Of a stretch of DNA of 64,000 nucleotides, positions 14,178-64,000 are shown piece by piece. Every line of letters begins with the position of its first letter. Positions within the stretch are counted from its first letter, which is position 1. The notes beneath the pieces are model-generated. The model had not been told where the DNA came from. It was given only the letters and a program-made list of their open reading frames with translations, and ran no database searches. The stretch comes from Dictyostelium discoideum (Eukaryota): positions 2,944,001 to 3,008,000 of the forward strand of contig CM000150.2 in NCBI GenBank assembly GCA_000004695.1, given 5' to 3'. Both the position numbers and the translations under genes were made by a program.

Positions 14178-14222
<45 letters not shown>

Positions 14223-14223
14223 A

Positions 14224-15477: not shown

Positions 15478-15512
<35 letters not shown>

Positions 15513-15763
15513 TGAAAATGTTTTTTTTAATTTCCATCCCATAAATTTTTTTTAAAAAAACTTGTTTTGTTCTGGTGTTTTCATTTTTTTTTTTTTTCTG
15601 AATAAAATTTATTAATAGGCCCAGAATACTTGAGAATGGTAGTAAGTTATTTAAGATAACAATAAAAACTATAAAATGTAAAAAAAAAAAAAAATAATAA
15701 TCATTCATTAAAATAAAATCAACGATAATCAAAAATAAATAAATAAATAAATTAATAAATAAA

Positions 15764-18519: not shown

Positions 18520-18523
<4 letters not shown>

Positions 18524-21500
18524 TCTAATGGAATTGGGTTTGGAGTGTTCGGGTTATGCCATGATGTGTTGAAGTTGATTATTAATTGGTCTCTGTTATT
18601 TAATTTGTATATTGTTTCATTCCTTTCGATCTTCTTTATTAAAATGAATTTCTCTATTTTAATTAAGTTGGTTAGTTCTTTTTCAATTAATGTTGGATCA
18701 AATGAGGGTGGAGATTTAGATTCGTCTTGATTGAATAGTTTGTGACAAATTATTCTCCATAGTTGATGTATAATTATGCCGATTAAATTTGGGTAGATTC
18801 TTTCTTTTTTATTTGTTTTGCTAATATCTAGTGAATTGAGATCCCAATTTCTGATCTTGAAGAATGAGAGATTGTTGAATGTTGAAATTATTATGTTTTC
18901 TATTTCTTTTACTTGCATACAGTCTATAAAAAGGTGAGTGTATGGGTCACGGATTATATTGTTACAGATTTTGCATGGTACGTTACGTTCATAGTTGATT
19001 CCAGGAAGTGACCTTGAGAAAAATCTGAATAGTGTATTTCTACCTTTTTGATGTGATATGTGGTTGATATGTTGGAAGATGGATGGTATGTTGATGTTAT
19101 TTATTGAAATTAGATTTTTTTGTCCATCTGTTTTTCTTATTGATTTGTATTTGTGAGTGATTAACATGTTATAGATTTCTTTAAGTTGAAGTGGCTTTTT
19201 GTTTTGACCTTTGATACAATCAGGTAGTGATTTTAGTTTATTGTGTTGTGGTGAAAAGTTGTTTCTAAAATCTTTCCATCTGTCTACCATCTCTCTTAAT
19301 CCAATTGATATATATTTGCTGTTGCTGATTTGTTCCATATACCATTCTTGTAGTATGTTGCATGCTTTTATCTTGATAATGTGTAATAATCTATTCATGT
19401 TCCAAACTTTGAATGCTATTTGTCTGATACCTAAGTCCCACATCTTAATTCCACCTTCTTTCCAATCACCATATGCTCTATCCATTGTCATTAATGTTCT
19501 ATATTTATGTTCTTCTGTGTATGTATTTTTAATTGCGGAGAAGAGGAACCATTTAATGATATTGTTTAGTTCAGTAATGTGTGATTCATTTAGTGAGTCT
19601 AGATATTGATGGTAGGATAATCTCGATAGCGCATATGTTTTGACAATTGTCATCTTTGCTCTTATTGTAGTTGCTTGACTTTTCCAATTGTTTAAGCTAT
19701 CTTTGATTGAGTTGATGATTGATGTGATTTTTGAATTGAGGCCCACTTTCGTGAAATTGAGACCCAAGTATCTTTCTGGAGCTTCACTAATCTTAAATGG
19801 GAGGTTTGGTGGTATATTACCAATGCATATCATAACAGTTTTCTCTTGATTAAGTTTTGAAGATGTACCTAGACAGTAGTTGTTGATTTTATCCAATACT
19901 AATTTTAATTCTTCTGCTGAGTTGTTGAAAGTTGACATATCATCTGCGAATGCTGTTAGCTTGATTCTTTTCTGGTCTGATCATTTAAATCCTTTAATTT
20001 CGTTTTCTTTAAGTATATCAATTAGTAGTGCTTCCATTACAAGTGCAAATATTGTTGGTGATAATGGATCTCCTTGTTTTGTGCCTCTGTTAACTGTAAT
20101 GTGTCCCACCAGGAAGTCATTTATCTTGATCTTATTCGTTGTTTCTTTTAATAGATTCATTATTAATTCTACTATCGTTTTTGGTATGCCAATGTGGCTC
20201 AATGTTCTTCTGATACTTTTGTGGCTAATTGAGTCGAAAGCTTTGTTGAAATCGAAGAATGTGATTAACGTAGTACTGTTTCTTGATTTGTTTGCTCTTT
20301 CGATTACCTCCTTCATTATTTGAATATTATCTTGGATGTAACGATTTGGAACAAACCCATTTTGAAATTTGTTTATTATTTTCTTTGTAACTGCAAGTAA
20401 ACGGTTGTTGATGATCTTACTTAATAGTTTGTAGTCCGTATTGAGTAGAGTAATTGGTCTTCTATTAGCTATTTGTAGTTCATCTCCTTTCTTGAATAGT
20501 GTTGTGATAAATCCTTCTTTGAATTTTGGATTGATTTCTTTTTGATTAGTTAATGTATCATTAAATACTTTTGCTAAGATTGTTGAAAGTGATGCAGAGT
20601 GGTTTCTATATAATGCAGCATTGATTCCATCTAGTCCTGGAGATTTGTGTGGATTAGAATTTTTAATTGCATTATTGACTTCTTTTGGTGTGATTGCACT
20701 ATCTAATGATAGTCTGGAAATGTATTGTTTGTCCACTATCCATTTATCCAATAGTTCCTTGTGTTTACTTTCATTATCTGGTTTTTCATCGTATTGTTCT
20801 TGATAGAATTCTAAGAAGCATTTGGCTATTTCAACTTTTTCTGATACAATTGTTCCATCTTTGTTTTTAATTTGGAATATGGATCTGTCCTTTTTCCTTT
20901 TCTTTAGTTTACTTGTTAGATATCTACTTGGAGTTTCTTGGTTTAAGTGAAGTTTCAATTTGGTTTCCCATTGTTTATTTGCTTCTTCTTCTTTCAATAA
21001 CTCTTCCATTTCGTCTTCTAGTTGCTTTCTTTGACCAGGGTATAAATCTTCTCTTTCAATTAATCTATGTAATCTACTCTTCTTTTTGTTTTTTTCCTTT
21101 TTTATCAAGTTCTGTTGCTTTTTGAGATGGTGCCTGATTGTATAATTCTTAAAGTGGATCCAGTCATCTAGTGTGTTGATGTATTGTTTGTTGTTTTCTA
21201 TGATTTGCGAGATTTCTTCATGAATTGTTGGATCAGCCAATGTTTCTTTGCATAATGTCCACGGGAGTTTTTCAATTTTGATGTTGTTGATGTTGATATC
21301 GTTTGCGCTATTGTTATTCATTTTTAAATCTATTGAAATAGGTGTGTGGTCAGATTTGTTGTAAATATCTTCATGCACCCTTAGCGGGTTTGAACCCACC
21401 ATTGTTGGTTTACAATAAATTCTGTCCAATCTGCTATTAGATCTTGAAAAAGTTGCGATATTGTTGTTTGCACCTATATCTTTCAGGTTGCTTTCTTCAA

Positions 21501-21972
21501 TTATACTTCTGATACCAATACCATAGTGTGAATTGTTGTTGTGGTCTGCATTAAAGTCACCTGCAATGATGTCATGTTTGATTTTTTGATCTTTAATGAG
21601 ATTCTTTGCTGCTATAATGAATGCATTTCTTCTAGGTATTGATGCTGGGGCATAAATTAAAAGGATGTTGATGTTGATATACGAATTGAACTTAACTGAT
21701 AATATTCTACCTTCTGTATCTTTGAAATTTACTGTTAGATAGCCAGTGCTTAAATTTCTATTCTCTATTGATACACCAGTGCCTTTACCGTTTCCATGAT
21801 CTATCCTTTCATAGTTGAACATTGATTTATAATGATTGAATGTTGAACCGTTTGTTTCTGTAAGTAATGTGATTTGGGGACCTATTCTCTTGATCGTTTC
21901 TTCAGCTTTTTTATTTGAGAGAGGGCTTGAACTACCTCTGCAATTCCATAATAAAATTTTTAATTTTTCCAT
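18520..21972 (-). CDS. Retrotransposon ORF2 (apurinic-type endonuclease plus reverse transcriptase plus zinc-finger-like motif), interrupted by a single in-frame TGA at 19978-19980.
   Basis: APE domain: MEKLKILLWNCRGSS...LLTETNG. RT motifs: PITLLNTDYKLLSKII, FDFNKAFDSISH, QGDPLSPTIFALVMEAL, and the FADD box, which lies just after the stop (...GFK*SDQKRIKLTAFADDMSTF). The two track ORFs, 19981..21972 and 18520..19938, are in the same frame and are separated only by this one TGA. Confidence 0.75.
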
Positions 21973-22179
21973 CCTCTTGATAGGGTTGGGTTACCATTTG
22001 GTGGTTGACCACCACTTGGTTTTGTTTGTGTAGTAATATTGTTTGTTGTATTTGAGTTGTTTAATTTATTTGTGATGATTGTTTTGTTGTTGTTGTTGAG
22101 ATTTTTGTCGTTGTTATTATTGCTGTTGTTATTATTATTGTTGTTGTTGTTGGAGTTATTGGAGTTATTGGAGTTATTG

Positions 22180-22259
<80 letters not shown>

Positions 22260-22907
22260 TTGTATTATATTTGTATTATTGATAGCTTGATTGGTTGTTG
22301 TTTGTTTTTTGTTTTTCTTTTTAGCTTCCTCCCTATCTTCTCTACTAATAGATTCACAGAAGTATACTTTAATTTGATTGTTGTTGTTTTTATATGACTG
22401 AATTTGATTATTGATTATATTTGTATTTGTTGATTTGTTGAATAGTATTATTGCTGAATATCTGTGCACATCATTCATAATTTTAACGTTGCATTCATCA
22501 ACTTCCACTGCTTCTACTCCCATGTTTGTTTGTACATCTTCTTTTGTTATTGCTTTTGTTATATTTTTTGTGAAGGTATAGAAGTGGAGGTAGTGGTGAT
22601 TAGGAAAGTATGGGATGAATCTTTGAATTCTATATATTCCATCCTCATCCTTTATTTGAAATGTGCAAAATGAATCGTGTAGATGTTTCAAATTTTCTTT
22701 TAGAATTCTACCCAACACTGTTATACCTTTTGATTTTCTAATTATTGTTTTATCTTTGAGGAGTGTATTGTCAATGAATTTGAGAGTATTACTATTTAAT
22801 TCTGCTGTATTTGGGTAGTATAGTCTGATTTTATATGTTGAGTTATTTAGTAATTCTTCATTGAATACAAATTTGTTACTGATGAGATTGAAAAAGTTAT
22901 TGTTCAT
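21960..22907 (-). CDS. Retrotransposon ORF1 protein with a long poly-Asn tract. 315 aa.
   Basis: Sits at the 5' end of the element and overlaps the ORF2 start by 13 nt. The (AAT)n run at about 22100-22260 encodes poly-N. Confidence 0.6.
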
Positions 22908-22938
22908 TTTTTTTTTTTTTTTTTTTTTTTATTTTTTT

Positions 22939-22982
<44 letters not shown>

Positions 22983-23070
22983 TATTTTATTACGTGATTG
23001 TTAATTATTTGTTGATAGTTTGTTGATTGATTGTGCTCAGACCGGAACTGTTGACATATGGTTCCTAAGT

Positions 23071-23076
23071 AAAAAA
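23071..23076 (-). terminator. Pol III oligo-T terminator of the tRNA-Ser gene.
   Basis: TTTTTT on the tRNA strand, 3 nt after the discriminator base. Confidence 0.6.
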
Positions 23077-23079
23077 GAT

Positions 23080-23161
23080 CGACATCGGCAGGGTTCGAAC
23101 CTGCGCCTCCTAGGAGATTTGATTTCAAGTCAAACGCGTTAGACCACTTCGCTACGATGTC
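23080..23161 (-). tRNA. tRNA-Ser (anticodon UGA).
   Basis: The minus-strand sequence GACATCGTAGCGAAGTGGTCTAACGCGTTTGACTTGAAATCAAATCTCCTAGGAGGCGCAGGTTCGAACCCTGCCGATGTCG folds as follows. A 7-bp acceptor stem (GACATCG/CGATGTC) plus discriminator G. A 3-bp D-stem with an AGTGGTCTAA loop. Anticodon stem TTTGA/TCAAA with loop CTTGAAA, giving anticodon TGA. A long variable arm, typical of type II Ser tRNAs. T-arm GCAGG-TTCGAAC-CCTGC. A T6 run follows. Confidence 0.85.
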
Positions 23162-23349: not shown

Positions 23350-24528
23350 TTATGAATTCATAAAATAGTTCTGTTTACTGTTTACAATTTGTGGTCCATA
23401 TTCATCATAATCTTCAAGTGATATCCAATGATGTCTGAAAGTTGATAATGAAGAAAATATTGAACCACCAATCCATGATAGATTTCTTCTATCTGGAATT
23501 TCAAAGATATTGAATTTTAAAGAAGAAGGGGATAAATTTGATAATTCATTTGATAATCTCTCTGAAAAACCTTTAAATAATGTTGAACCACCAGTTATAA
23601 CTATACTATTTTGTAATTGAATACGTTCTTGAACATCACATTTTAAGAATGAATTATAAATATGTTCATGAATACCACCAACTGATGATGATTCACAACC
23701 AACTAATGATGGTTGAAATAATGGTTCAGTTGATTGAAATAGTTCATTAGTTAATGATATAACCCTACCATCTACTAATTCATATTCCTTAATACTACTA
23801 ATATTAGTTGCTGCTTTTTGCATATCCAAATTATAATTTAATGATACGTAACCTAACTTTTCTTTAATATCATTAACAATTAAATTTTCATTATACGTAT
23901 TGAATTTATAATCGCGGTTTTTTAAAAACTCCATTAAAAAATTAGATAAATCGTTACCACCCAATGGTAAATGTGACATTGCTTTGGTGATTATTTTACC
24001 TTGATAAATGGGTACTGTATAGCTTTCACCAAAACCACAATGAGCAATGATAGCACTTTCTTTACCAGAGCCAATTAATGATAGTGACGCTCTATTTGTG
24101 ACACTTGCTAATTTTGAATTATAAGTTTCAAATAAAAGTTGAGTCAAACGTTCTCTATTCATCTTTGAATTAAATGGTGAATCCGTAATTAATATTGGAT
24201 ATTCGTCACATGATATATTCAATACTTGATGAAATGAATAATTTAAAAGTTTCTCCATATCATCCCAATTTATGATTGAACCACGTTCAATTGGATGTTT
24301 GATTGATATATTGGTTTTTTGAGTTTCAACTTCGTGTCCTGCAAATATAACTTTTTTATTTGGTGCACCATATAATACTTCATAATATTTGGTTCTACCA
24401 ATAATAGTTGGAAATTCATTTCTTGGTGTTAATTCTTCATTTGAAAATCCAACCTTTGTAAAACCTGATCCACAATCAATTATAACTGAGTTTCTAATTT
24501 CTTCATTATTATTATTAATATCATTCAT
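23350..24528 (-). CDS. Divergent actin-related protein, Arp10/Arp11-like. 392 aa.
   Basis: Actin-fold signatures: IIDCGSGFTKVGFSNEE...FPTIIGR (compare actin VVDNGSGMCKAGFAGDD...FPSIVGR), LPLGGNDLSNFL, IVITGGSTLFKGFSERL, WIGGSIFSSLSTF. The FTK.GF and LPLGG motifs resemble dynactin Arp11/ACTR10. Confidence 0.65.
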   Translation of the reverse strand: MNDINNNNEEIRNSVIIDCGSGFTKVGFSNEELTPRNEFPTIIGRTKYYEVLYGAPNKKVIFAGHEVETQKTNISIKHPIERGSIINWDDMEKLLNYSFHQVLNISCDEYPILITDSPFNSKMNRERLTQLLFETYNSKLASVTNRASLSLIGSGKESAIIAHCGFGESYTVPIYQGKIITKAMSHLPLGGNDLSNFLMEFLKNRDYKFNTYNENLIVNDIKEKLGYVSLNYNLDMQKAATNISSIKEYELVDGRVISLTNELFQSTEPLFQPSLVGCESSSVGGIHEHIYNSFLKCDVQERIQLQNSIVITGGSTLFKGFSERLSNELSNLSPSSLKFNIFEIPDRRNLSWIGGSIFSSLSTFRHHWISLEDYDEYGPQIVNSKQNYFMNS

Positions 24529-49319: not shown

Positions 49320-50315
49320 TTATAAAATTATATTACAATGAAAAATAAAAATAAAAAAAGAGAATTTGATATTAAAAATAAAATAAAAAAAAAAAAAAAG
49401 AAAAAAAAAAAAAAAGATAGTGAAAATTTGAAAAAAAAAAAAAATAAAAAAAAAAAAAATAAAAAAAAATTAAATAAAAAAAAAAAATAAAAAAAAAAAA
49501 ATTAAAAATAAAATAGATTTTTATTTTTTGTGTAAAAAAATTTTTCAAAATTAATATCAAATTTGAAATTTAAAAAAACAACTGCAATGTGTGGTGTATT
49601 TTGGGAGTTGTTTATAGTTATTTATGTATTAAAATTTTATAACAATATTTTGTTTATGACAATATTTTGTTTATATGTTTTATGGTATTTCTTATATTTA
49701 TATCTTTTAATTTATTTTTCTTATTTTATATCTTTTAATAATATTTGAGTTAATAACTGAAGAAAAAAAAAAATTTTAATTTAATTATATTTTATAATAT
49801 TTAAAATGTGTTGATAGAATTAATTAAAAAAGGATATTAAAGGGATATAATAATTTTTGGAAATAATTATTTTATAATAATAATTGAATTTGCTATTTTA
49901 AGAATATATAATTTATAATAATAAATAGAAAATACTATTTTTAAATTGGTATATGATATATGATATATGATATATCGTCAAGAATAAGAATGGTTTCGTT
50001 ATAGCAATTCGTAAAAAAAATTTAAATCAATAATTAAATATTATATTATAAAAAATAAATAACATAATAATACTTATATGTACTCACTTTGACCTTAATA
50101 ATAAAAAAAAAAAATAATGAAAAAAAAAAAAGTTTAAAAATGTGGGAATATTTTTATTTATACTCCCACTTAAATTAATATCTTTTACCTTAAGTGTTTT
50201 TACCAAAAATTATATAAAAAAAAAAAAATAAAAAATGCTTTTTACAAAAAAAAATTAATTTTATTTTTAATTTAATATTACTTCATTTATTGTTTTCTAT
50301 TTTAATTTTAATTTT

Positions 50316-50363
<48 letters not shown>

Positions 50364-50572
50364 CAATATTTTGATAATAAATTAAATTCTTAATAAAATA
50401 AAAATAAAACCTTATTTGGTTTTGTTTTTTTTTTGTAATAATCTTTTAAAATAAAAATAAAATAATATTAACAAGGCTCAATTTAATTTTGCCTTCATTT
50501 ATCGTTTGTGTATTACCGTTTTATTTTCTAATTTTAGTTTTATATTTTTATTTTTCTATTTTCAATTTTAAT

Positions 50573-50625
<53 letters not shown>

Positions 50626-50626
<1 letters not shown>

Positions 50627-51127
50627 CAATATTCTGATAATAAATTAAATTCTTTAATTATTGCATCTCTGATTTCTTTTAAATAAACTTTTCTTACAAA
50701 ATACAAACCATGTAAATTTGGTATATCTTTTAATTCTACAGCATAACGAGTATTATCTCTTGCTTCTGGATTATTATCGAACATTGTTACTCTTTTTGTG
50801 TCAAACTCAAATGAATGACCACCTTTACTATTGAAAAATATTTTTGAAGCTTGAAAGAATGATTCATCAGGAATAAATGAAAATTTAAAACTGATTAATC
50901 TTTCCAATGATTTTAAATCACTAATTAGGTATTTTACAAATTCAACATTTAAAAATTTCCATTGAGATCCGTCGCCATAACTTTTATTTCTATCATAATA
51001 TTTACTCATTCCCAAGCCATCACCACAACCTTGTTCTTTCATATTTTTTGGTAATAATTCAATTAATCCACTTTTATCATTAAGTTGTACCCAATTTCTC
51101 TATATTTAAATTTATATTAGTAATTAT

Positions 51128-51159
<32 letters not shown>

Positions 51160-52280
51160 AAAATTAATATAATATTTACATCAAATCTAAAATAATCTTT
51201 AATACAACAATGATCTAAATAACTTTTTCTTTTATTATTACATAGAATTTTTGAAAAATTTGATAATGGAATTGTTGGCATATCATTACCACTTAAATTA
51301 ATAATATGTGACCATTGACTATCTTCAAATGACAGACCAGTTTTATTAATTCTTTCTTCAACCATATCAAATAATACCGTATATGAAGCAATCTCTAAGT
51401 AAACTAATGAAATTGATCCCCATTCACCTTCAAATCTATTTTTCATAATTTTGATATTACTTGGATAATCATTCCATTTCTTTTTTGAATAATTACTTAA
51501 ATTCTCTTTTTTTGTTTCAATAATTTTTTTAAAAAATATTTCCAATTCTTCATCATCTATTTTTGTATTTCCATCAACTTTGATTTTTTTTAATAATATT
51601 TATTAGTTTTTAAATTTTTTTTTTTTTTTTTTTTTAATAATTTACTTACTATGAATAAGATAATAGTTATTTGGTGAATATAAAAATTGAAATAATGTAT
51701 TGATAGCATCATAATCAATATCTTTTATAATTAATAAAAAAGCCAATGGATTTGGGTTATCTAAATCATTACAATTATCATTATTTAAAAAATTTTCAAG
51801 TTGTTGTTCTCTTTTTTTAAAATAATTTGAATATTTTAAATTAATTTCACCTTTTTCCAAATTACTAATTAATAAAAAATCTAATAATTTAACATCTTTT
51901 TTATCCCATGGTCCATATGTTTTTAATAATTCATTAATTATTTTATTTTCATATGATTTATTTAAATTTATACTATTGTTATTATTATTTTTATTATTAT
52001 TAATTGTTAATTTTAATTCTGATAAATTGATTTCATCTCTATATTTTGAAAAACAACATATTGGTCCAATTGAATTTGAAAAGTAAGTTGCATTTGTACA
52101 TTTTTCATTTTTATCTATTTTTTCACATTTATCACCTGAATATGATGGTGGACAAATACATTTGTCACTTAAAACCGAAATACCACCATTTTCACATAAT
52201 TTAAAATTATTTTCTTGAAAACTAAATTCTACAAAAAAAATTATAAATAAAATTAAAATTAATAGTTTCTTCATTTTCAT
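50626..52280 (-). CDS. GT14-family (core-2/I-branching, BRANCH domain) glycosyltransferase with an N-terminal signal peptide and an EGF-like Cys-rich module. join(52280..51650, 51577..51180, 51100..50626), about 500 aa.
   Basis: Signal peptide MKMKKLLILILFIIFF, then CENGGISVLSDKCICPPSYSGDKCE (EGF-like). GT14 motifs: NNYYLIH|IDGNTK (YxIHVD-like), WSHIINLSGNDMPT (WdyfINLS.sDyPl), IPDESFFQASKIFFNS (DE.FFQT). Donors are A|GTAAGT and GAT|GTAAAT. Acceptors are ...TCAAAG and ...ATATAG. Phases are consistent. Confidence 0.65.
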
Positions 52281-52711
52281 TTTATTATTCTGTTTTCTAA
52301 ATAATAATAATAAAAAAAAAAAATAAAAAAAAAAATAAAATGTATAAATGATTTTTTTTTTTTTTTTTTTATAAAATAAAATTAATTAAATAAATAAATA
52401 ATAAAAAAAAAAGTTAGAATATTGGTGTGGATATCTAATATAGTATACTTAAATCTAACTGTGGAAAAATTTCAAAAATAACCCATTTCATTAATTAATT
52501 AATTGAACCACTACAAAAATTCCTTAAAAAGTTTGTTGTTTTTTGAAAAATTCTTTAAAAAATGTGGTGGTGCCAATGAAAAAAATTATTTTAAAATAAA
52601 ATAAAAAAACAAAATAAAATAAAATAATTTTTTAATTATAATTAAAAAAATTTAATTATTTCTATTTTTTTTTTTTTTTTTTAATTTTACAAAAGTTTAT
52701 TTATATAACTA

Positions 52712-54286
52712 TTAGTTGATTTTAAAAGTTGCAGATATTGAAGTATGGTCAGAAGCATAAAATGGAGAATTAAAAGGTGATAATTTTGAGCATCTACCAC
52801 CAATTTTAAAATCTATTAAAGATAGAATTTGATCATTTGAACGTAATAAGAAATCTATTCTTTTTGAAGGTTTTGAATAAAGTGTTGGAAAAGTGAAACC
52901 ATTTACTAAATCAGTTTCTTTACATCTATCAGTATCTTCAATACCAACAATACTAACAACACCTTCATTATCTTTTAAAAATTGTAATTGTCTATTCTTT
53001 TCATTCTTTTGATTTGGATGATTTGAAAATTCAACCCAAGTATCAATTAAATTATTATTATTATTATTATTATCTTTATAATAATTATTAATATCATAAT
53101 TTCCTAATAAAAATTGAATTGCATTTTCATTTGGTTCTAAATTAAAATCACCCATAAATAAATGTGGTTTTTTAAATGAATTTATCCAATTTAAAGATTC
53201 ATATGCATTTCTTTTTGAACCATCAGTTTCTAATGAAAAATGTGATGTAAATATATTAATTTTTTTTGAAATTTCAAATTGTTGTTGTTGTTTTTTTTTA
53301 AAATTAATTTCAACTCTTAAACAAGATCTTTGATGAGCATCATCAGGTTTTTTAATATCTCTTGATAATTTAATTGAATCAATATTTGAAATTTCATGTT
53401 TTGAAAATATAGATAAACCTTCAAATTGTAAACCAGTACTTGTTGGATATACCATTGATGGTAAATAAACGAAATTATATTTTAAATTTCTTTCACCAAG
53501 TAATTTAAATAAATGTTGAACTTGATTACGTTCTTCACCCATTTTAATTGGATTACTTGATTTCACTTCACTATCCCATGCTGAAAATCTTAATTCTTGA
53601 AATGAAATTACATCTGGTAATTCTTTCTCTATTAAATCCGCCATTAATATTCTTCTATCTTTCCATGGTTCATTAAAATTCCATGTATTATATGACATAA
53701 TTTTAATTGTTTCATTAAAATTATTATTATTATCTTTATTTATATTATTAGTTGATGAAATTGTTGATAAAATATCTTTTTGTTGTTCATCATTATTATT
53801 ATTATTATTTTTATTATTATTATCATTATCATTACATATAAATTGTTGAATTGTAATTAATTTTAAATAATCTTTAAATAATTTAATTGAAAGGTATCTA
53901 CAGTTTGATTCTAAAATTCTTTTTGATTTATAATCTTCAATAATTGTTGTTGTAGATTGATTTCTAATGAATGTTTCATATTGTTTTGATTGTTGAATGG
54001 TTGTATCAACGAAAAGTGTTAACTCATAGAGTGTACCAATTTGAAAATCTTGATATTCAAGTTGGCCATAACTATTATAGGCTGGTTGTTTCAAATTATC
54101 ACCATTTCCATTTGTACTTAAAAATTGTTTTTGTAATTTACCTTCAACTACTTGAAGTTGAAATATTGGATAATTATATTTAATTCGATTCTTTAAATTA
54201 TCAACTTTTTGAAATTTATTTAAATAAAAATATCTATGTAAATTAATTGTTGGTTCAATTTGCTTGAGAAAAAAAAAAAAAAAAAG

Positions 54287-54328
<42 letters not shown>

Positions 54329-54525
54329 AATATATTATTATAATAAATAAATAAATAAATAAATAAATTACATACATCTAATAATTTATTTAATTCTTTT
54401 GAATCTAAAGATAAACTTTCGAATTCACCAACTATACCAGCATTTGAAGTTGGTTCTGAAAAAGTATTATTAATAAATAGTAATACTAAAGTAAATAATA
54501 TTATTGAAAAATGATACATTTCCAT
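52712..54525 (-). CDS. Secreted/ER endonuclease-exonuclease-phosphatase (EEP) superfamily protein. join(~54525..~54375, 54262..52712), about 567 aa. Exon 1 coordinates are accurate to within 1 nt.
   Basis: Exon 1 encodes a signal peptide (MEMYHFSIILFTLVLLFINNTFSEPTSNAG...KELNKLLD) and ends at GTATGT. A roughly 112-nt intron contains a long A-run. It ends at TCTCAAG. Exon 2 is QIEPTINLHRYFYLNKF...LKQPAYNSY.... The M shown in the track is an internal TTG. EEP motifs: IMSYNTWNFNEPW...DVISFQELR at the N-terminus, GDFNLEPNE, and the C-terminal ASDHTSISATFK. Confidence 0.6.
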
Positions 54526-55081
54526 TGAATGGATTTGAAGTACTATTATATAAATAAAGATTAAAATAACCAATCTTTATATTTGTTTTTTTTTTTTCAA
54601 ACTGTGTTTCATTTTTTTTTTTGTTTGTGTTTTCACAAAAAAAAAAAAAAAAATTAAAAAAAAAATTAAAAAAAAAATAAAAATATTATTTTTTATTTTT
54701 TATTTTTTTTTATTTATTTTTATTTTTTTGTTTTATTTCAACTGCTTTTCAGGGTTAAATGAATTGATTCAATGAAAATATATAAATAGTTTTTATTAGT
54801 GTGGGAATAATCTATATGGTAAGAATTTTATTTTATTTTAATTTTTTAATTTTTTTATTTTTTATTTTTTAATTTTCACATTTAAAAATATCTTTCGTGG
54901 ATATTTTTATTAAAAAAAAATTAATTTTGGTGTTTTTTTTTTTTTTTTTTTTTTTTTTTTGTGAATAGAATAATTTTTAATTTTTTAGATTACTTTTAAT
55001 TCCTCATCAAAACAAAATAATAAATAAAAAAAAAAAAAATGAGAGATTTATTAAAATTCAAGTAGGTGAATTTGGAAATCA

Positions 55082-55433
55082 GTTAGAACAATCAACTAAT
55101 ATTAAATCAAATTTAGAATCAATTATTAAAGGTATTCAAGATAATAAGATATTAAAAGTATTCGATAAATTCTACCATCAAGATGTTATAATGTATGAAA
55201 AAGGTGATTCAACTAATCGTGTTGGTAAAGTTGCTAATCGTAAAGCTGAAGAATCCTTTGTTAATAATGCAACAATCCATGAAGCAAAATTATTAAAAAC
55301 AATCATTGATGGTAATAATACAGCATATGAGATGTATATGGATTTCACATATGGCGAACATCGTATCAAAAAGAATCAATGGGCCATTCAACAATGGTCA
55401 AATGGTTTAATCATCAAAGAAGAATTTTATTAA
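55082..55433 (+). pseudogene. Truncated single-domain fragment (second-domain half) of the NTF2-like array family. No in-frame start codon.
   Basis: LEQSTNIKSNLESIIKGIQDNKILKVFDKFYHQDVIMYEKGDSTNRVGKVANRKAEESFVNNATIHEAKLLKTIIDGNNTAYEMYMDFTYGEHRIKKNQWAIQQWSNGLIIKEEFY* is about 90% identical to the second domain of copies 2-5. The upstream ATG at 55039 is out of frame and hits a stop after 8 codons. The only in-frame Met is internal (55191). Confidence 0.7.
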
Positions 55434-55456
55434 ATAAACTAAAGTAATTGTAAATT

Positions 55457-55487
<31 letters not shown>

Positions 55488-55590
55488 GTTATTTAATTAA
55501 TTATTTATTTATTATTTTTGTTTATTTTTTTTTAAACAATAAAGTAAAAGATAATAGGTTTTTAATTTTTTTTTTAATTCTCCCAACCAC

Positions 55591-55625
<35 letters not shown>

Positions 55626-55911
55626 GCGACATGGCACTGATTTTCAAATAAAAATTTTACAATTAATTCCCAAACACCAAGGAATCCAATTTTAAAAAAA
55701 AAAATCCATAATCTCTTTTTGCCAAATTTTTTTTTTTTTTTTTTTTATCTCTGATTAAAATAAAGAATTAATTTTAATGTTTTTTTTTTTTTTTTTTTTT
55801 TTTTATATTTAAAATAATTGTAGGAAAAAAAAAAAAAAAAAACAAAATTAAAATAATAATAAAAATAATATAAAAATACAATAAAATAATATTTTAATAA
55901 AATAAAAAAAA

Positions 55912-56916
55912 ATGGAAGATCGTTTACAAGAATTAAGAATAGCTGGTGGTCTTAAACCTCTAGTTGATAAAAAGAATGGTAAAAAAGGTTCAATGGTTGA
56001 AATATCTTTAGAAACACCATCAAGTTCAAAAATATATGATTATAATGAAAATAAAAATGGTGATATTGAATTAGAAATAAATGATCATCCAGATCCGGTT
56101 GAAGAATTTATGCCAGAATTTTATCAAGAAGTTGGTTTAATAAAATCATTAATGACATCAGTTAAAAAGAATATAAGAGCAATCGAAGATAAATATATAT
56201 TATCATTAAATTCAATTAGTATTGAATCACAAAATCAAAAATATGAGGATGATATACAATTAATACTAGAAGTTACAAATAGTTCATTATCTGAATTAAA
56301 GAATAAATTGGATACAATGAAAATAAGTAATGAAAAATATTCATATTCAAAATCATCAACACCCACAGAAGTTCGTATTAGAAATAGTATGTTAAATACA
56401 CTAACTCAAAAATTCATTGAAATGATGAGAGAGTATCAAGAGATTCAAAACAACTATAAAAATAAATATAAAGAAAAAATCGAAAGACAATATAAAATCG
56501 TTAAACCAGAAGCAACCTCTCAAGAAATTAACGATGCAATTCAATCAGGTGACTCTAAAAAGATTTTCGAAGAGACTATTCTCCATACACATTTACATAC
56601 TCATGCTTTGAATGCTTTAGATTATATTCAAGAAAGACATAACGATATTATTAAATTGGAACAAAGTATTAAAGAATTACATCAATTATTTTTAGATATG
56701 GCTGTTTTGGTTCATAATCAAGGTGAGTTGTTAAATGTTATTGAAGATAATATTAATTCTGCTGTATCCGATACAAGAGAGGGTACACAAAATTTACAAG
56801 AAGCTAATAAGCTTCATAAAAAATCAAGAAAGAAAATGTATATTCTTTTAATTATAGTTTCAATTGTTTTGGTAATAATTTTAGTTCCAATTTTAAGTAC
56901 TCAAATTAATAAATAA
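55912..56916 (+). CDS. Syntaxin (Qa-SNARE) with a C-terminal transmembrane anchor. 334 aa.
   Basis: Habc-like N-terminal region. SNARE motif ALNALDYIQERHNDIIKLEQSIKELHQLFLDMAVLVHNQGELLNVIEDNINSAVSDTREGTQNLQEANKL with the conserved Q. A basic stretch, then the TM helix MYILLIIVSIVLVIILVPIL. Confidence 0.85.
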   Translation: MEDRLQELRIAGGLKPLVDKKNGKKGSMVEISLETPSSSKIYDYNENKNGDIELEINDHPDPVEEFMPEFYQEVGLIKSLMTSVKKNIRAIEDKYILSLNSISIESQNQKYEDDIQLILEVTNSSLSELKNKLDTMKISNEKYSYSKSSTPTEVRIRNSMLNTLTQKFIEMMREYQEIQNNYKNKYKEKIERQYKIVKPEATSQEINDAIQSGDSKKIFEETILHTHLHTHALNALDYIQERHNDIIKLEQSIKELHQLFLDMAVLVHNQGELLNVIEDNINSAVSDTREGTQNLQEANKLHKKSRKKMYILLIIVSIVLVIILVPILSTQINK

Positions 56917-57126
56917 TTAAATATATATATATATTTAATTAAATAGTGTTTAAAATTATCTATATCTAATTTAACATTCAAAATATTTTATTGTTTATTT
57001 AATTTTTATTTAATGTTTATTATTTAAACCGATTGTTGAATTGCTTTTTTTTAGTTCAACTATTTTTTTTTTTTTTGAGAAATAATTTTTTGAAAAAAAA
57101 AAAAATAACTGAAATTAAAAAAAAAA

Positions 57127-57134
57127 TCCCATAA
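57127..57134 (+). promoter_or_regulatory. DUSE (Dictyostelium upstream sequence element, [AT]CCCA[CT]AA) about 60 bp upstream of the Class I RNA candidate.
   Basis: TCCCATAA at 57127-57134. Its spacing to the predicted RNA 5' end (about 57190) matches the typical 60-65 bp for Dictyostelium ncRNA genes. Confidence 0.55.
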
Positions 57135-57189
57135 AAAATTTATTATTAAAAATTGTTTTACTAATTAATAGATTTTTTACAATTATTAA

Positions 57190-57252
57190 ACAAGCTCGCC
57201 TTACAGCAATTACTCTGATTTTTCTCCAAAAAAAAAACCTTCGCGAGTTGTC
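57190..57252 (+). ncRNA. Candidate Dictyostelium Class I small ncRNA gene.
   Basis: A 5' stem CAAGCTCGC pairs with a 3' stem GCGAGTTG (3 + 5 bp with one bulge). The conserved Class I 11-nt motif CCTTACAGCAA (57199-57209) follows the 5' stem directly. A T-rich run follows the 3' stem. A DUSE-like element lies about 60 bp upstream. Ends are approximate. Confidence 0.6.
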
Positions 57253-57256
57253 CTTT

Positions 57257-57295
<39 letters not shown>

Positions 57296-58228
57296 TTGCC
57301 AATATTGGTAATTATATATAAAGGAACACACAATTAATATTATATGAATGCTGTAAAGCGAGAATCAAAACTAACTTTATTTTTTTTTTTTTTTTTATAA
57401 CCCAAAAAGAAAAAATTTACATTTTTTTTTTTTTATGACCCAACTAACCGTTAAAAAAAAAAAAAAAAAAATAATTAAAAAAAGAAAAAATAAAAATAAA
57501 AAAATAAATAAATAATTAAATAAAAAAAAAAAAAAAAAAAAATAAAATTCAGGAAAAAAAATTTCATTTCTGGTACTCATATTACAACAACAAGGAACAA
57601 CAATTTTTTTAAAAAGCAATTGAAAAAAAAAAAAAAACAAAAAAAAAAAAGAAAATATTATCGAAATGATCGCGAAAAATGACAATTAATTTTTTTTTTT
57701 TTAATTGAATTCATTTTGTGAATATATGGATATAAAAATAACCTGATGCCAACACATCGCCTTCACCAAACATTTTTCTTTTGGATGGCCACTTTATTCG
57801 AAATATGACTTTTATCTTTAGACATATTATTATTATTTTTATTTTCTTTTTAACTAAAAAAAAAAAAAAAAAAAACTATAAATTTAAAAAAAAAACAAAC
57901 TATTTTTTTTAATTTATAAAGGGTTAATAATAATAAAATAATAATTTATATAACTCCATAATTAAATATTCATTATATTATTATTTTTTTTTTTTATATA
58001 AAAAAAAAAAAAACAAAAAAAAAAAAAAAAATATTTTACCTTACTTAATAATAAATTATTCAATTTATTATTTTCATTCATATAACTTATTTATAGTTCA
58101 AATTATATTAAAAAAAAAAAAAAAATTTTATAAAAAATTTTTTTAACTAAATATTATTTTTTTTTAAAACAAATAATTTATTTTCAAATTATTAAAAAAA
58201 AAAAAAATTAATATATAATTTTTCCAAA

Positions 58229-61200
58229 ATGGAAGAAAATAGTAATAAATTTGAACAAGAATTAAAAGAAATTGGCCAAGATAGAAATCAATTTCCGCAT
58301 ATAAGTGTTGAAGAATCTCTTCAAGAATTTGATTCATTCTCAAATAAAATCGAAAATGAATCAAAACAATTTGGAGCTCAAAAAGATCCAGAATCTTATA
58401 TGGCAGGTGGTGAAACTGAAGAAGATTTCAAATTAAGAAAATATTTTGAAAACTCTGAAAGAATGCATCTTGAAAATGGTGGTAATGAAAAAAAAATGGG
58501 TGTTTCCATTAGAAATTTAACTGTTGTTGGTCTTGGTGCCGATGCATCTGTAATTGCTGATATGTCAACTCCATTTTTTAGTATTTTAAATTTTTTTAAA
58601 CCATCATTTTGGTAAGTAAAAAAATGGTATTATTATTATTATTTTAATTTTAAAGTTTACTAATTATTATTATTTTTTTTTTTATTATTTATAGGACTAA
58701 AAAAACATCAACATTTGATATTTTACATGATGTTACAACATTTTGTAAAGATGGTGAAATGGTTTTAGTTTTAGGTAGACCAGGTGCTGGTTGTTCAACT
58801 TTATTACGTGTTATTGCAAATCAAACTGCATCATATGTTTCAGTTAAAGGTGATGTTAGATATGGCGGTATTCCATCAAAAGAGTTTGAAAGATATAGAG
58901 CTGAATCTATTTATACACCAGAAGAAGATTCACATCATCCAACTTTAACAGTTCGTGAAACTTTAGATTTTGCATTAAAATGTAAAACTCCAGGTAATCG
59001 TTTACCAGATGAAACTAAAAGATCTTTCCGTGAAAAAGTTTTTAATTTATTATTATCAATGTTTGGTATTGTTCATCAAGCTGATACTGTAAGTTTTCTT
59101 TTTTTTTATTTATTTATAAAATAATTTTTTTTTTTTTTATCTTTTGCTAATTACTTTTTTTTTTTTTCCTAAATAAAATAGATTGTCGGTAATGAATATG
59201 TTAGAGGTTTATCAGGTGGTGAAAGAAAACGTTTAACAATTACAGAAGCAATGGTATCATCAGCATCAATTACATGTTGGGATTGTTCAACTCGTGGTCT
59301 TGATGCAGCATCAGCATTTGATTATGCAAAATCAATTCGTATTATGTCTGATACATTACACAAAACAACAATTGCATCATTTTATCAAGCATCCGATTCA
59401 ATTTATAATGTATTTGATAAAGTTTGTGTTTTAGAAAAAGGTCGTTGTATTTATTTTGGTCCAGTTGGTATGGCAAAACAATATTTTATGAGCTTGGGTT
59501 TCGATTGTGAACCAAGAAAATCAACACCAGATTTTTTAACTGGTGTAACAAATCCACAAGAACGTATTATTAAAAAAGGTTTTGAAGGTCGTACTCCAGA
59601 AACTTCAGCCGATTTTGAAGCAGCATGGAAAAACTCTGATATATATAGAGATCAACTTCAAGAACAAAAAGAATATGAAGAATTAATTGAAAGAACTCAA
59701 CCAAAAGTTGCATTTGTTCAAGAGGTAAAAGATGAAAATAGTAAAACCAATTTCAAAAAATCACAATATACTACAAGTTTTATTACGCAAGTTGTTGCAT
59801 TAACTAAAAGAAATTTTCAATTGATTTTAAATGATAAATTTGGTCTTTTCACAAAATATCTTTCAGTATTAATTCAAGCATTTGTATATTCATCTGTTTT
59901 CTATAATATGGCAAGTGATATTAATGGTTTATTTACTAGAGGTGGTGCAATTCTTTCAGCTGTAATTTTCAATGCTTTTCTCTCTGTTGGTGAAATGTCA
60001 ATGACTTTCATTGGTCGCCGTGTCTTACAAAAACATAAGAGTTATGCTTTATATCGTCCATCTGCTTTACATATTGCACAAGTTGTTAACGATATTCCGT
60101 TTACATTACTTCAAGTATTCTTATTTTCAATTATTGCATACTTTATGTTTGGTTTGGAATATGATGGTGGTAAATTCTTTATTTTCAGTTTTACATTGGT
60201 TGGTGCAAGCTTAGCATGTACAGCACTTTTCAGATGTTTTGGTTACCTTTGTCCATCGATGTATATCGCTCAAAATATTTCAAATGTTTTCATCATTTTC
60301 ATGCTTACCTATTCTGGTTATACAGTACCAATTCCAAAAATGCATCCATGGTTCAGTTGGTTTAGACATATCAATATCTTTACCTATGCATTTAAAGCAA
60401 TTATGGCAAATGAATTTGAAGGTAAAGAATTTAATTGTTTAGAATCTGCAATTCCATATGGTCCAGCATATCAAGGTTCAGAGTTTGATGCATATAGAAT
60501 TTGTCCATTAGGTGGTATTGAACAAGGTAGTCTCTACTTTAAAGGTGAGTTTTATATGGATAAAACTTTAAGATTCAAAGAAGGTGAAATGTCACAAAAT
60601 GTCATCATTGTTTATTGTTGGTGGATTTTCTTTGTAATTTGTAATATGCTTGCAATGGAATATATTGATCATACAAGTGGCGGTTATACTCATAAAGTTT
60701 ACAAAAAAGGTAAAGCTCCAAAAATGAATGATGTTGAAGAAGAAAAACAACAAAATGCCATTGTAGCAAATGCAACAAACAACATGAAAGATACTCTTCA
60801 TATGGATGGTGGTATTTTCACATGGCAAAACATTAGATACACTGTCAAAGTTCCAGGTGGTGAAAGATTATTATTAAACAATATTGAAGGTTGGATTAAA
60901 CCAGGTCAAATGACAGCTTTAATGGGTTCATCGGGTGCTGGTAAAACAACTTTACTCGATGTTTTAGCAAAGAGAAAAACTTTGGGTGTTGTTGAAGGTG
61001 ATTCACATTTAAATGGTAGAGAATTAGAAATTGATTTTGAACGTATTACTGGTTATGTAGAACAAATGGATGTCCACAATCCAGGTTTAACAGTTAGAGA
61101 AGCATTACGTTTCTCTGCAAAATTACGTCAAGAACCAGAGGTATCATTAGAAGAGAAATTTAAATATGTTGAACATGTTTTAGAAATGATGGAAATGAAA

Positions 61201-62724
61201 CATTTAGGTGATGCATTAATTGGTACATTAGAAACTGGTGTTGGTATTTCAGTTGAAGAAAGAAAAAGATTAACAATTGGTGTTGAATTGGTTGCAAAAC
61301 CACAAATTCTTTTCCTTGATGAACCAACATCTGGTTTAGATGCTCAATCATCATATAATATCATTAAATTTATTCGTAAATTAGCAGATGCAGGTATGCC
61401 ATTAGTTTGTACAATTCATCAACCATCATCAGTATTATTTGAACATTTTGATCGTATTCTTTTATTAGCTAAAGGTGGTAAAACAGTATATTTCGGTGAT
61501 ATTGGTGAAAAATCAAAAACTTTAACATCATACTTTGAACGTCATGGTGTTCGTCCATGTACTGAGAGTGAAAATCCAGCAGAATATATTTTAGAAGCAA
61601 CTGGTGCAGGTGTTCATGGTAAGTCTGATGTTAATTGGCCAGAAACTTGGAAACAATCACCAGAATTAGCAGATATTTCAAGGGAATTAGCAGCATTAAA
61701 AGAACAAGGTGCACAACAATATAAAATAAGAAGTGATGGACCAGCAAGAGAATTCTCACAATCAACATGGTATCAAACTAAAGAAGTTTATAAACGTTTA
61801 AATTTAATTTGGTGGAGAGATCCATACTATACATATGGTTCATTCGTTCAATCAGCACTTTGTGGTTTAATTATTGGTTTTACATTTTGGAATCTTCAAG
61901 GTTCAAGTAGTGATATGAATCAAAGAATTTTCTTTATTTTCGAAGCACTCATGTTAGGTATCTTATTGATTTTCGTTGTAATGCCACAATTAATTAGTCA
62001 GCGTGAATACTTTAAGAGAGATTTTGCCAGTAAATTCTATTCATGGTTCCCATTTGCAATTTCAATTGTTGTTGTAGAATTACCATTCATCGTTATTTCA
62101 GGTACAATTTTCTTCTTTTGTTCATTCTGGACCGCAGGATTGGATAAAACTAGTGATAGTGAACAAACCTTTTACTTCTGGTTCATTTTCGTTATCTTTT
62201 TGTTTTTCTGTGTTTCTTTCGGTCAAGCAGTAGCAGCAGTTTGTATCAATATGTTCTTTGCAATGACATTGATTCCATTGTTAATTGTTTTCCTATTTCT
62301 TTTCTCAGGAGTTATGACCCCCCCATCATCAATTCCAACCTTTTGGAGAGGATGGGTGTATCATTTAAACCCATGTCGTTACTTTATGGAAGGTATTGTT
62401 ACAAATATTTTAAAAACTGTCGATGTTAAATGTTCATATGAAGATATGATCACTTTTACATTCCCAAAGAGTTATAATACTTGTCAAAACTACACTAGTG
62501 CTTTTCAATCATATGGACCATCCGGTTATGTTGAGAGTTCCATATTAAATGGTGAACCAGCCTGTAGTTATTGTATCTATAAAAATGGTGAACAATATTA
62601 CAAAACACTTGGTTGGTCAGATGATAATCGTTGGAGAAATGTTGGTATTATCATTTGTTTCTTTGTTTTCAATATTTTAATGGTTATCTTATTTGTTTAT
62701 TTAACTAGAAAAGGAAGTAGATAA
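58229..62724 (+). CDS. Full-size ABC transporter of the G (PDR-like) family, NBD-TMD-NBD-TMD. join(58229..58611, 58695..59088, 59182..62724), about 1440 aa.
   Basis: NBD1: Walker [12 protein letters not shown], signature [14 protein letters not shown], and a Walker B region. TMD1 has 6 helices. NBD2: Walker [16 protein letters not shown], signature [16 protein letters not shown], and [15 protein letters not shown]2 follows. The donors are canonical (TG|GTAAGT and ACT|GTAAGT) with ATAG acceptors. Which abcG paralog was not determined. Confidence 0.85.
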
Positions 62725-63464
62725 ATAATTTAATAAATAAAAAAAAAAAATAATAAAAAAAAAAAAAATATATATATATTTAATAAAAAAAAAAGTAAAT
62801 TGAAATAAAACTAAAAAGTTTTAATTTATTAATTATAATAAAAAGCTTTTTCAATTATAAATAAAAATAAATTAAAAATTGTTTTGAAAAAGTTTAAATA
62901 TTCATAAATCAAAGATAAAAAAAGGATTTTTTTTTTTTATTTTTAGTAGGTATTGTCAACAAAAATTAATCTCATTAATTTTATTATTATTAATTATCTT
63001 TATTGATTTTATTTTTTTTGGGATGGTTATTAAGGACTTTGATTTTTTTTTTTTTTTACAATTTTTTGATATTAATTTCAGCCTAAAAAGAGGTGATTTG
63101 TATAGTCTTAAATCAATATTGTTGATAAAATTAAAAAGATAAAATAAGAATGGGACAAATATTCTTTTTTTTTTTTAATTTAATTTATCTATAATAAAGA
63201 ATATTAAATTTTATTTTTTTAAATATAGACTAATAAGTGAATTTTATTTTTAGTTTTTTTTTTTTTCAAACAAATTTTTTTTAAGATATTTTTTCAATGA
63301 AAATTTTTGGATTAAAAAAAAAAAAAAAAAAAAATTAATTTTTGTGGTGTATAAATAATTTTTTTTTTTTTTTATTTTCATTAAGAAATCAAATAAAATA
63401 AAATAAATAAATAAATAAATATAAATATTAATTTAAAAAAATTGAATTTAAATAAAATAAAAAA

Positions 63465-64000
63465 ATGTTGGTACCAATAAAAATAAAATTTATTTTAAAA
63501 AAAAATTAATATTAATTTTTTTTTTTTTTTTTTTACCAATTTTAGGCAAAATATTAAATGTGTTGTTGTTGGTGATGGTGCAGTTGGTAAAACCTGTATG
63601 TTAATTTCATATACTACAAATGGTTTTCCATCAGAATATATTCCAACAGTTTTTGATAATTATTGTGCAAATTTGATGTTGGAAGGTAAGCCCTATAGTC
63701 TTGGACTTTGGGATACTGCAGGTCAAGAAGATTATGATCGTTTAAGACCATTATCATATCCACATACTGATGTATTTTTAATTTGTTTTTCAATTATTTC
63801 ACAAGCATCATTTGAAAATGTTACAACAAAATGGTTTAAAGAAGTTAATCATCATGCTCCTGGTGTACCAATAATTTTAGTTGGTACAAAACAAGATATT
63901 AGAAATGATAATGATTCAATTAAAAAATTAAAAGAAAAGAATATTGAATTAGTACCATATGAAAAAGGTTTAGAAAAAGCAAAAGAAATTAATGCAATCT
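63465..64000 (+). CDS. Rac-family Rho GTPase. The 5' part runs off the window end. The start codon appears split as AT|intron|G.
   Basis: From 63546: (M)[151 protein letters not shown].... The upstream AT at 63465-63466 is followed by GTTGGT, and the intron ends at TTTTAG (63545). Only this arrangement gives M-Q-N-I-K. The donor is weak and the structure is unconfirmed. Confidence 0.7.

Follow-up and report, generated by a model that had tools for sequence, protein, structure and literature searches.

Class I RNAs of the Dictyostelia are small noncoding RNAs with a length of ~42-65 nt and a GC content of 32-41% (Avesson 2011, Kjellin 2021), the 11-nt motif CCUUACAGCAA being that of Group 4. 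Their terminal stem is conserved across the Dictyostelia as a structure but not as a sequence, and the 5' G of the RNA is preceded in the genome by a conserved AA dinucleotide (Kjellin et al., PMC7919456). The CUGU sequence at the 3' end, in which the C pairs with the 5' G, is almost perfectly conserved, although not absolutely, and the 11-nt motif is predicted to be largely unpaired, as was found by probing for DdR-21 (PMC7919456). The RNAs are mainly cytoplasmic, and their genes are reported to tend towards small clusters. DdR-21 is the only member with a reported protein partner and knockout phenotype: the RRM protein Rnp1A (Cibp) binds it directly, and knockout cells form fruiting bodies that are smaller and more numerous.

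Type-3 genes of RNA polymerase III (Pol III), such as that of U6 snRNA, have a PSE-like element ~55-60 nt upstream, an optional TATA-like box near -30 and a T-run as terminator. In D. discoideum, the Dictyostelium upstream sequence element (DUSE) has been reported upstream of Pol II as well as Pol III snRNA genes (PMC7919456). All expressed Class I genes have a DUSE at the correct distance, a feature that separates expressed from silent candidates, and the Class I layout with a DUSE at -60 and no TGTG box, which occurs in every dictyostelid group, is argued to be ancestral (PMC7919456). T-runs lie downstream of many Class I genes, on the basis of which Pol III was suggested to transcribe them (Kjellin et al., PMC7919456).

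The window analysed here, a stretch of 64,000 nt from chromosome 1 of D. discoideum AX4 (bases 2,944,001-3,008,000) with an A+T content of ~78%, was scanned in full against all 4227 Rfam families at their gathering scores. Two matches were obtained, one to a tRNA and the other to RF01414 (Dicty_Class_I_RNA). The latter was located at 57194-57250 on the plus strand and covered the model end to end (positions 1-56), with 45.2 bits against a gathering score of 41.5 and an E-value for the window of 1.9e-05. This was the covariance-model search that the first-pass annotation had proposed as a check on its Class I assignment, and the score lies on the side of that assignment. Besides this match, a permissive scan (E <= 10) of positions 50000-64000 revealed no further Rfam matches.

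The sequence and coordinates of the match were compared with the supplementary files of Kjellin et al. 2021 (PMC7919456). All 57 nt of window 57194-57250 (+), which correspond to positions 3001194-3001250 of chromosome 1, were identical to DdR-35 in the curated FASTA (57/57). In the GFF of the same study, r35 extends from 3001192 to 3001250 (+) on DDB0232428 (chromosome 1) and carries the identifiers DDB_G0295495 and GenBank AJ699396, while the BED and the six CM output files give 3001192 or 3001194 to 3001250 (+). With the offset of 2,944,000, these coordinates convert to window 57192 or 57194 to 57250, on the same strand. The gene is the already known r35, or DdR-35, and is not new. The in-house CM scores of that study for r35 range from 37.8 to 55.1, with a cut-off of 25.

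DdR-35 is intergenic. The upstream neighbour is an ORF of 334 aa at 55912-56916 with Syntaxin and SNARE domains, an exact match to the AX4 t-SNARE protein XP_646069.1/Q55DR2, and ORFs of ABC-G transporters begin downstream at 58229. The layout of 57194-57250 is GCTCGC-CTTACAGCAA-TTACTCTGATTTTTCTCCAAAAAAAAAACCTTC-GCGAGT-TG, followed by TCC, TTTT, a single A and 31 T. The RNA has a GC content of 40% and measures 57 nt, or 58 nt with the terminal U, so that the 60-65 nt assigned to the unit in the first-pass annotation were an overestimate. The features of the locus are as follows:

57127-57134, plus strand: DUSE TCCCATAA, putative promoter element, an exact match to WCCCAYAA
57146-57177, plus strand: conserved A/T-rich block of the spacer, -48 to -17, invariant in the five aligned loci except at one position
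57192-57193, plus strand: AA dinucleotide before the 5' G and start of the dictyBase feature (GFF start 3001192), with AA in 5/5 loci
57194-57250, plus strand: DdR-35 (r35) RNA, 57-nt curated core, defined by the RF01414 match and the published sequence and coordinates
57194-57251, plus strand: DdR-35 extended by U57251, provided that transcription includes the YUGU end, as has been reported for the family (57-58 nt)
57194-57199, plus strand: 5' half of the terminal stem, GCUCGC, pairing with 57243-57248
57199-57209, plus strand: 11-nt Class I motif CCUUACAGCAA, exact, following the 5' stem
57210-57242, plus strand: variable region with a run of A10 and then CCUUC at its end, differing between strains
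57243-57248, plus strand: 3' half of the terminal stem, GCGAGU, partner of 57194-57199
57254-57289, plus strand: T-run, candidate Pol III terminator, with TTTT at 57254-57257, one A, and 31 T at 57259-57289
57348-57363, minus strand: decayed inverted partial copy of the DdR-35 5' end, TCTCGCTTTACAGCAT, with a 13/16 match to GCTCGCCTTACAGCAA

Each of the elements that characterize Class I was then inspected individually. In DNA form the motif reads CCTTACAGCAA, and its only exact occurrence in the window is at 57199-57209 (+), in agreement with the description of an invariant motif right after the 5' stem. When up to two mismatches were allowed, the 11-mer occurred across the window at chance frequency, and therefore only the exact match is informative. 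The terminal stem, GCUCGC/GCGAGU, forms 6/6 pairs with a closing G.U pair. A stem at this place had been recognised correctly on the first pass, but the halves proposed for it, CAAGCTCGC with GCGAGTTG, overshoot by 2-3 nt: C57191-A57193 precede the 5' end of the published RNA, and CAAGCTCGC has GCGAGCTTG, not GCGAGTTG, as its reverse complement. The minimum free energy structure of 57191-57253, a folding check likewise proposed on the first pass, includes the terminal stem, while its energy was no better than that of shuffled sequences (z = -1.06). A non-significant energy is expected, since the conserved structure of Class I RNAs consists of the 6-bp stem alone. At the 5' end, the genomic A57192, A57193 and G57194 provide the AA-G start, which is kept in all five aligned loci. 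The 3' end of the AX4 RNA is UUGU, the first U of which pairs with G1 as a G.U wobble.

The DUSE was found where it had been described, about 60 bp upstream: the octamer TCCCATAA occupies 57127-57134, with 59 nt between it and G57194. Table S2 of PMC7919456 lists the same octamer for r35 at a distance of 58 and without a TGTG box. With 8 occurrences in the window against 9.9 expected, the octamer is no more frequent than by chance, so its weight comes from its position alone. Four other plus-strand TCCCATAA sites (12.5-17 kb) were considered as markers of further Class I genes and rejected, as they lie upstream of four tandem protein-coding genes. The spacer between DUSE and start is 59 nt long, A/T-rich, ends in CAA and contains no TGTG box (AAATGTG). 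Within its conserved block, ACTAATTAATAGA lies at about -34 to -22 and may have a TATA-like role. The T-rich 3' flank noted on the first pass is also present, as the TTTT and 31 T on either side of the single A. As the genome is ~80% A+T, little weight attaches to TATA-like strings and T-runs. Taken together, the covariance-model score above threshold and the fit of motif, stem, 5' G, AA, GC content, length and DUSE distance bear out the initial identification of a Class I small ncRNA gene with a canonical DUSE.

DdR-35 has one close paralogue, DdR-36 (r36, DDB_G0295547), located on the minus strand of chromosome 3 at 2300516-2300577. The two RNAs share 56 identical positions, the stem GCUCGC/GCGAGU, the motif and the UUG end, have similar read counts, and are both preceded at about -60 by the DUSE TCCCATAA, without a TGTG box. 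Apart from chromosome and strand, DdR-36 differs in being one nt longer, with an extra A after CUCUG and A9CCC in place of A10CC. The locus-specific variants are thus GAUUUUUC and A10CC in DdR-35 vs GAAUUUUUC and A9CCC in DdR-36, the distinguishing sites being CUCUGAUUUUUC with A10CC and CUCUGAAUUUUUC with A9CCC, respectively. The family comparison comprised 34 of the curated D. discoideum sequences. Among them, the stem GUUGAC/GUCAAC is combined with the exact motif CCTTACAGCAA and a CUG end in 19, and the stem GCUCGC/GCGAGU was restricted to DdR-35 and DdR-36. Relative to the majority, the DdR-35 stem is changed on both sides at positions 2 (U-A to C-G), 4 (G-C to C-G) and 5 (A-U to G-C). 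After DdR-36, the next-best match to DdR-35 in the family was identical at 47/57 positions.

DdR-35 was reportedly cloned in a 2004 cDNA study, that of Aspegren, in which Class II is said to have been the original label for DdR-35 and DdR-36. A trace of this label persists in the GFF of PMC7919456, where r35 and r36 alone are typed as "class_II_RNA", the dictyBase feature type. Neither "Class I" nor "Class II" is mentioned in Hinas 2007 (PMC2175303), and full-text literature searches for DdR-35, DdR-36 and "Class II RNAs" gave no matches. The label raises the alternative that the two RNAs form a separate functional family with other partners or roles, which would have only the 11-nt motif in common with Class I. 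Consistent with such a family are the feature type confined to the pair, the three exchanged stem pairs with the closing G.U and the UUG end, the direct placement of the DUSE at about -60 without the TGTG box of most D. discoideum Class I genes, and the drop to 47/57 beyond DdR-36. However, the stem is conserved across the Dictyostelia as a structure, and the promoter layout is regarded as the ancestral one of Class I (PMC7919456). The Rfam Class I model scores above threshold at DdR-35, and in the 2021 study r35 and r36 appear with the published Class I RNAs and are curated as such (Kjellin et al. 2021, PMC7919456). In addition, other strains carry the CUG end and a stem nearer to that of the majority (GUUCGC/GCGGGC). 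A separate Class II family is therefore considered improbable, and DdR-35 is treated below as a Class I RNA.

Syntenic 7-kb loci were obtained from four further assemblies, three of D. discoideum and one of "D. cf. discoideum", which were reached via the t-SNARE protein and three cluster variants. The gene order was the same in all loci (Exo_endo_phos, SnoaL_5, t-SNARE, ABC-G). RF01414 matched at the syntenic site in each, with 45.2 bits in L001, which is identical to AX4, 42.1 in L003, 39.6 in L002 and 38.5 in L004, the last two being below the gathering score of 41.5. The identities to AX4, given for L002, L003 and L004 in this order unless stated otherwise, were:

5' flank: 79%, 74% and 63%
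DUSE: 8/8 in all four assemblies
DUSE-to-start spacer: 85%, 90% and 90%
11-nt motif: 11/11, 11/11 and 10/11
variable region: 73%, 74% and 71%
T-run flank: 64%, 62% and 53%
downstream: 69%, 66% and 62%

The motif was identical in 4/5 strains, the variant in L004 being CCTTACAACAA. In the stem, the outer three pairs vary between strains and the inner three are constant. Pair 1 is G.U or G-C, pair 2 is C-G or U.G with a C-A mismatch in L002, and pair 3 is U-A, U.G or C-G. The standard CUGU 3' end is carried by L002, L003 and L004, and UUGU is found in L001 and DdR-36 as in AX4. Across the orthologues and DdR-36, pairing was maintained in 29/30 cells (96.7%), compared with 27-47% when the 3' partners were slid by 1-3 columns. 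In a shuffle control for covariation, 388/500 shuffles did as well; with only 5 distinct sequences, this control is uninformative. The comparison supports constraint on the sequence of the DUSE, the proximal spacer and the motif, whereas the stem appears to be constrained as a structure. Beyond D. discoideum sensu lato, no DdR-35 orthologue or synteny was found in the supplement and synteny figure text of PMC7919456, and within that supplement GCTCGCCTTACAGCAA was present in D. discoideum files only and in none of D. firmibasis.

Expression was assessed from published data. In Table S2 of PMC7919456, the RNA-seq reads per library for r35 number 77,909 and 88,719 at 0 h, 122,516 and 148,163 at 4 h, and 156,702 and 155,649 at 8 h. 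The same table gives a classifier score of 56.7 (threshold 32) and a CM score of 37.8, and marks validation by read coverage with 1. The small RNA that the first-pass annotation had expected to be detectable at this locus is thus represented by 77,909-156,702 reads per library, some of which may be shared with DdR-36: the two RNAs differ at two positions and have near-equal counts, so that reads may be ambiguous between the loci. No regulation was inferred from the rise, as the counts are raw and other members rise by a similar factor. The presence of separate cDNA accessions in the GFF, AJ699396 and AJ699397, argues that both DdR-35 and DdR-36 were cloned. According to the published counts, which may include DdR-36 reads, DdR-35 is abundantly expressed in growing and developing cells.

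About 100 nt downstream of DdR-35 and convergent with it, the minus-strand sequence TCTCGCTTTACAGCAT matches the first 16 nt of the RNA at 13 positions. A match of this quality is expected 0.07 times per window, and no shuffle gave two. By local alignment, the similarity is confined to 14 nt, and 2/300 shuffles of the 258-nt flank scored equally. In L003 and L004, the copy reads CACGCCTTACACAAT and CACACCTTACAGCAT in reverse complement, in part closer to the motif, and in L002 it is deleted. The copy was evaluated as a second Class I gene and rejected, given the 14-nt extent of the similarity and the lack of a 3' stem, a DUSE and a CM match; it also has no entry in the CM outputs of PMC7919456. 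The only DUSE-like sequence at the correct distance was GGTCATAA at 57433-57440, a 5/8 match. The copy is probably a decayed partial inverted duplicate, a relic rather than a gene, which is consistent with the tendency of Class I genes towards small clusters. Recognisable, although decayed in different ways, in three other assemblies and lost in one, it has roughly even chances of being the remnant of a second, convergent r35-type gene. A function for the copy, through pairing with the 11-nt motif in read-through transcripts, is speculative and very unlikely.

The near-equality of the DdR-35 and DdR-36 counts bears on a further alternative, namely that the match at 57194-57250 is due to chance or the locus is a dead pseudogene, the reads assigned to it really coming from DdR-36 on chromosome 3. 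With only two differing positions, multi-mapping could indeed inflate the count of one locus. Against this, DdR-35 has a cDNA accession of its own, its DUSE is intact, invariant and correctly spaced, and four other assemblies retain the gene at the syntenic site together with the motif and the stem pairing, while their flanks and variable region diverge. The inverted copy at 57348-57363 illustrates what a true decayed copy looks like, as it lacks the CM match, the correctly spaced DUSE and the 3' stem. A non-functional DdR-35 is accordingly rated as highly improbable.

That this is a new, unannotated Class I RNA gene, as the wording "unannotated-looking" had implied, has next to no probability, for although the sequence features are themselves real, this reading rests on nothing further than a raw window without annotation, and DdR-35 is present in the published lists, CM outputs and expression table with a sequence identical at 57/57 positions and coordinates coinciding with those of dictyBase r35 (DDB_G0295495, AJ699396). 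No observation spoke against the identity with DdR-35. The account as a whole, that of a known Class I gene, r35, encoding an RNA of 57-58 nt that was reportedly once labelled Class II, is held with very little doubt, the components of the mechanism proposed below being graded separately.

In the proposed mechanism, the DUSE would recruit the transcription machinery and direct the start at G57194 without a TGTG-box intermediate. Transcription would be by Pol III and end in the T-run, which starts 3 nt beyond the 3' end of the RNA; for the choice of polymerase, the balance is approximately equal. The RNA would then fold with its stem closed and the 11-nt motif exposed and unpaired, and Rnp1A or related proteins may bind this motif, giving rise to a cytoplasmic RNP. 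Such an RNP could modulate gene expression in early development, redundantly with DdR-36. The Rnp1A-RNP part is extrapolated from DdR-21 by analogy, and for DdR-35 itself it is put forward tentatively, with a little less confidence than the polymerase. The literature examined contained no reports of a polymerase, protein partners or a phenotype specific to DdR-35.

The value of the locus as a discovery is small, given that the gene already has entries in dictyBase and GenBank and was revisited, with expression data, in 2021, and it offers no new handle on the function of Class I RNAs. Its value is rather one of calibration: a genuine Class I gene and its promoter were recognised from raw sequence, which indicates that the signature of the family (DUSE at -60, AA-G start, 6-bp stem, 11-nt motif and T-run) is legible by eye. 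The comparison of four natural-isolate assemblies is new here and backs, for DdR-35, the published claims of a constrained DUSE and motif and a structurally conserved stem. If the relic is correctly interpreted, it would provide, together with the stem changes between strains (G.U to G-C, C-G to U.G, and U-A to U.G to C-G), a within-species snapshot of the birth, death and structure-preserving drift of Class I genes.

In comparison with known systems, DdR-35 has no sequence relation to the snRNAs, yet its gene resembles the snRNA-type Pol III genes in having a promoter that lies wholly upstream, with a short conserved element located ~60 nt ahead of the start, conserved A/T-rich sequence at -34 to -22 and a T-run right after the RNA. 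From the canonical Class I RNAs (DdR-21, DdR-22 and DdR-23A-C; RF01414) it differs at three pairs of the stem, in the closing G.U and in the UUG rather than CUG end. Its gene is also solitary and not part of a cluster, and has its DUSE at ~-60 with no TGTG box, whereas in most D. discoideum Class I genes the DUSE is at -70 to -90 with a TGTG box between it and the start. With the canonical members it shares the length, the GC content of 40%, the AA-G start, the 6-bp stem and an 11-nt motif of identical sequence. As in those members, the 3' part of the loop is rich in A and C, the promoter contains a DUSE, the gene is intergenic and expression is high.

The Class I small RNA gene DdR-35 (57194-57250, + strand) was compared with its orthologues at the syntenic loci of four other D. 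discoideum or cf. discoideum assemblies. Two of these orthologues differed at hallmark positions:

L004 4246-4303, DdR-35 orthologue with a changed motif
L002 4422-4478, DdR-35 orthologue with a stem mismatch

The L004 orthologue carried a G-to-A change in the 11-nt motif (CCTTACAACAA), and in the L002 orthologue the second pair of the terminal stem was a C-A mismatch. The respective Rfam scores of 38.5 and 39.6 bits fell below the gathering score of 41.5, and the DUSE, the putative upstream promoter element of Class I genes, was intact in both. The two changes are natural variation at supposedly constrained positions.

Between the DUSE and the start of DdR-35, a spacer at 57146-57177 (+ strand, −48 to −17), which includes ACTAATTAATAGA, was near-invariant across the aligned strains. 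The conservation of this spacer exceeded that of the variable region within the RNA, a hint that the promoter may include a second element, perhaps TATA-like. No description of a second spacer element for Class I genes was found in the literature searched.

Downstream of DdR-35, a partial copy of the gene and a conserved block were observed:

57348-57363, − strand, inverted partial copy of DdR-35 (5′ stem and motif), TCTCGCTTTACAGCAT (13/16 match)
57426-57443, + strand, invariant intergenic block, TTTTTTTTTATRACCCAA

The inverted copy lies approximately 100 nt beyond the gene and is convergent with it; a match of 13 of 16 positions to the 5′ stem and motif is expected 0.07 times per window. 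For this copy, no covariance-model match, 3′ stem or DUSE at the correct distance was found. Differently decayed forms were present in two other assemblies, and in a third the copy was deleted. It is probably the relic of a partial duplication.

The block, approximately 790 nt upstream of an ABC-G transporter ORF, was invariant in all five aligned strains within an A/T-rich intergenic stretch that was otherwise poorly conserved. In three strains it corresponded to ACCCAAAA, a weak DUSE variant which is listed for r56 (Kjellin et al. 2021, PMC7919456). No recognisable feature was present at a distance of 60 nt downstream of the block.

An exact DUSE-type octamer, TCCCATAA, was also found 227-299 nt upstream of the ATG in each of four tandem genes within 12516-18071 (+ strand), whose products of 236-237 aa each consist of two SnoaL-like domains:

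12743-13453, + strand, SnoaL-like tandem gene 1 (octamer at 12516)
14224-14937, + strand, SnoaL-like tandem gene 2 (octamer at 13940)
15764-16474, + strand, SnoaL-like tandem gene 3 (octamer at 15537)
17358-18071, + strand, SnoaL-like tandem gene 4 (octamer at 17059)

Between the copies, the 20 nt preceding each octamer differed and the sequence from the octamer onward was conserved, so that the octamer marks the 5′ edge of a conserved upstream block. An Rfam scan of the tandem region (12516-18071) returned no match. A single-domain SnoaL_5 paralogue of this family (~55042-55437, + strand; 2131-2526 in the syntenic locus L001) lies between Exo_endo_phos and t-SNARE genes, approximately 1.8 kb upstream of DdR-35. 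It is called as 131 aa in other assemblies, of which the window ORF at 55191-55433 represents the C-terminal 80 aa; upstream of this paralogue, no octamer of the DUSE type was detected.

Elsewhere in the window, a non-LTR retrotransposon starts approximately 170 nt downstream of a tRNA gene, in the same orientation (18520-23161, − strand):

23080-23161, − strand, tRNA-Ser(UGA)
21960-22907, − strand, retrotransposon ORF
19981-21972, − strand, retrotransposon ORF with apurinic-type endonuclease and reverse transcriptase domains
18520-19938, − strand, retrotransposon ORF
23350-24528, − strand, intact actin-family ORF of 392 aa (Pfam Actin, E = 5e-92)

The actin-family ORF directly adjoins the tRNA-Ser gene. 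The layout of tRNA and retrotransposon is presumably similar to that of TRE3-type elements, which target tRNA genes in D. discoideum.
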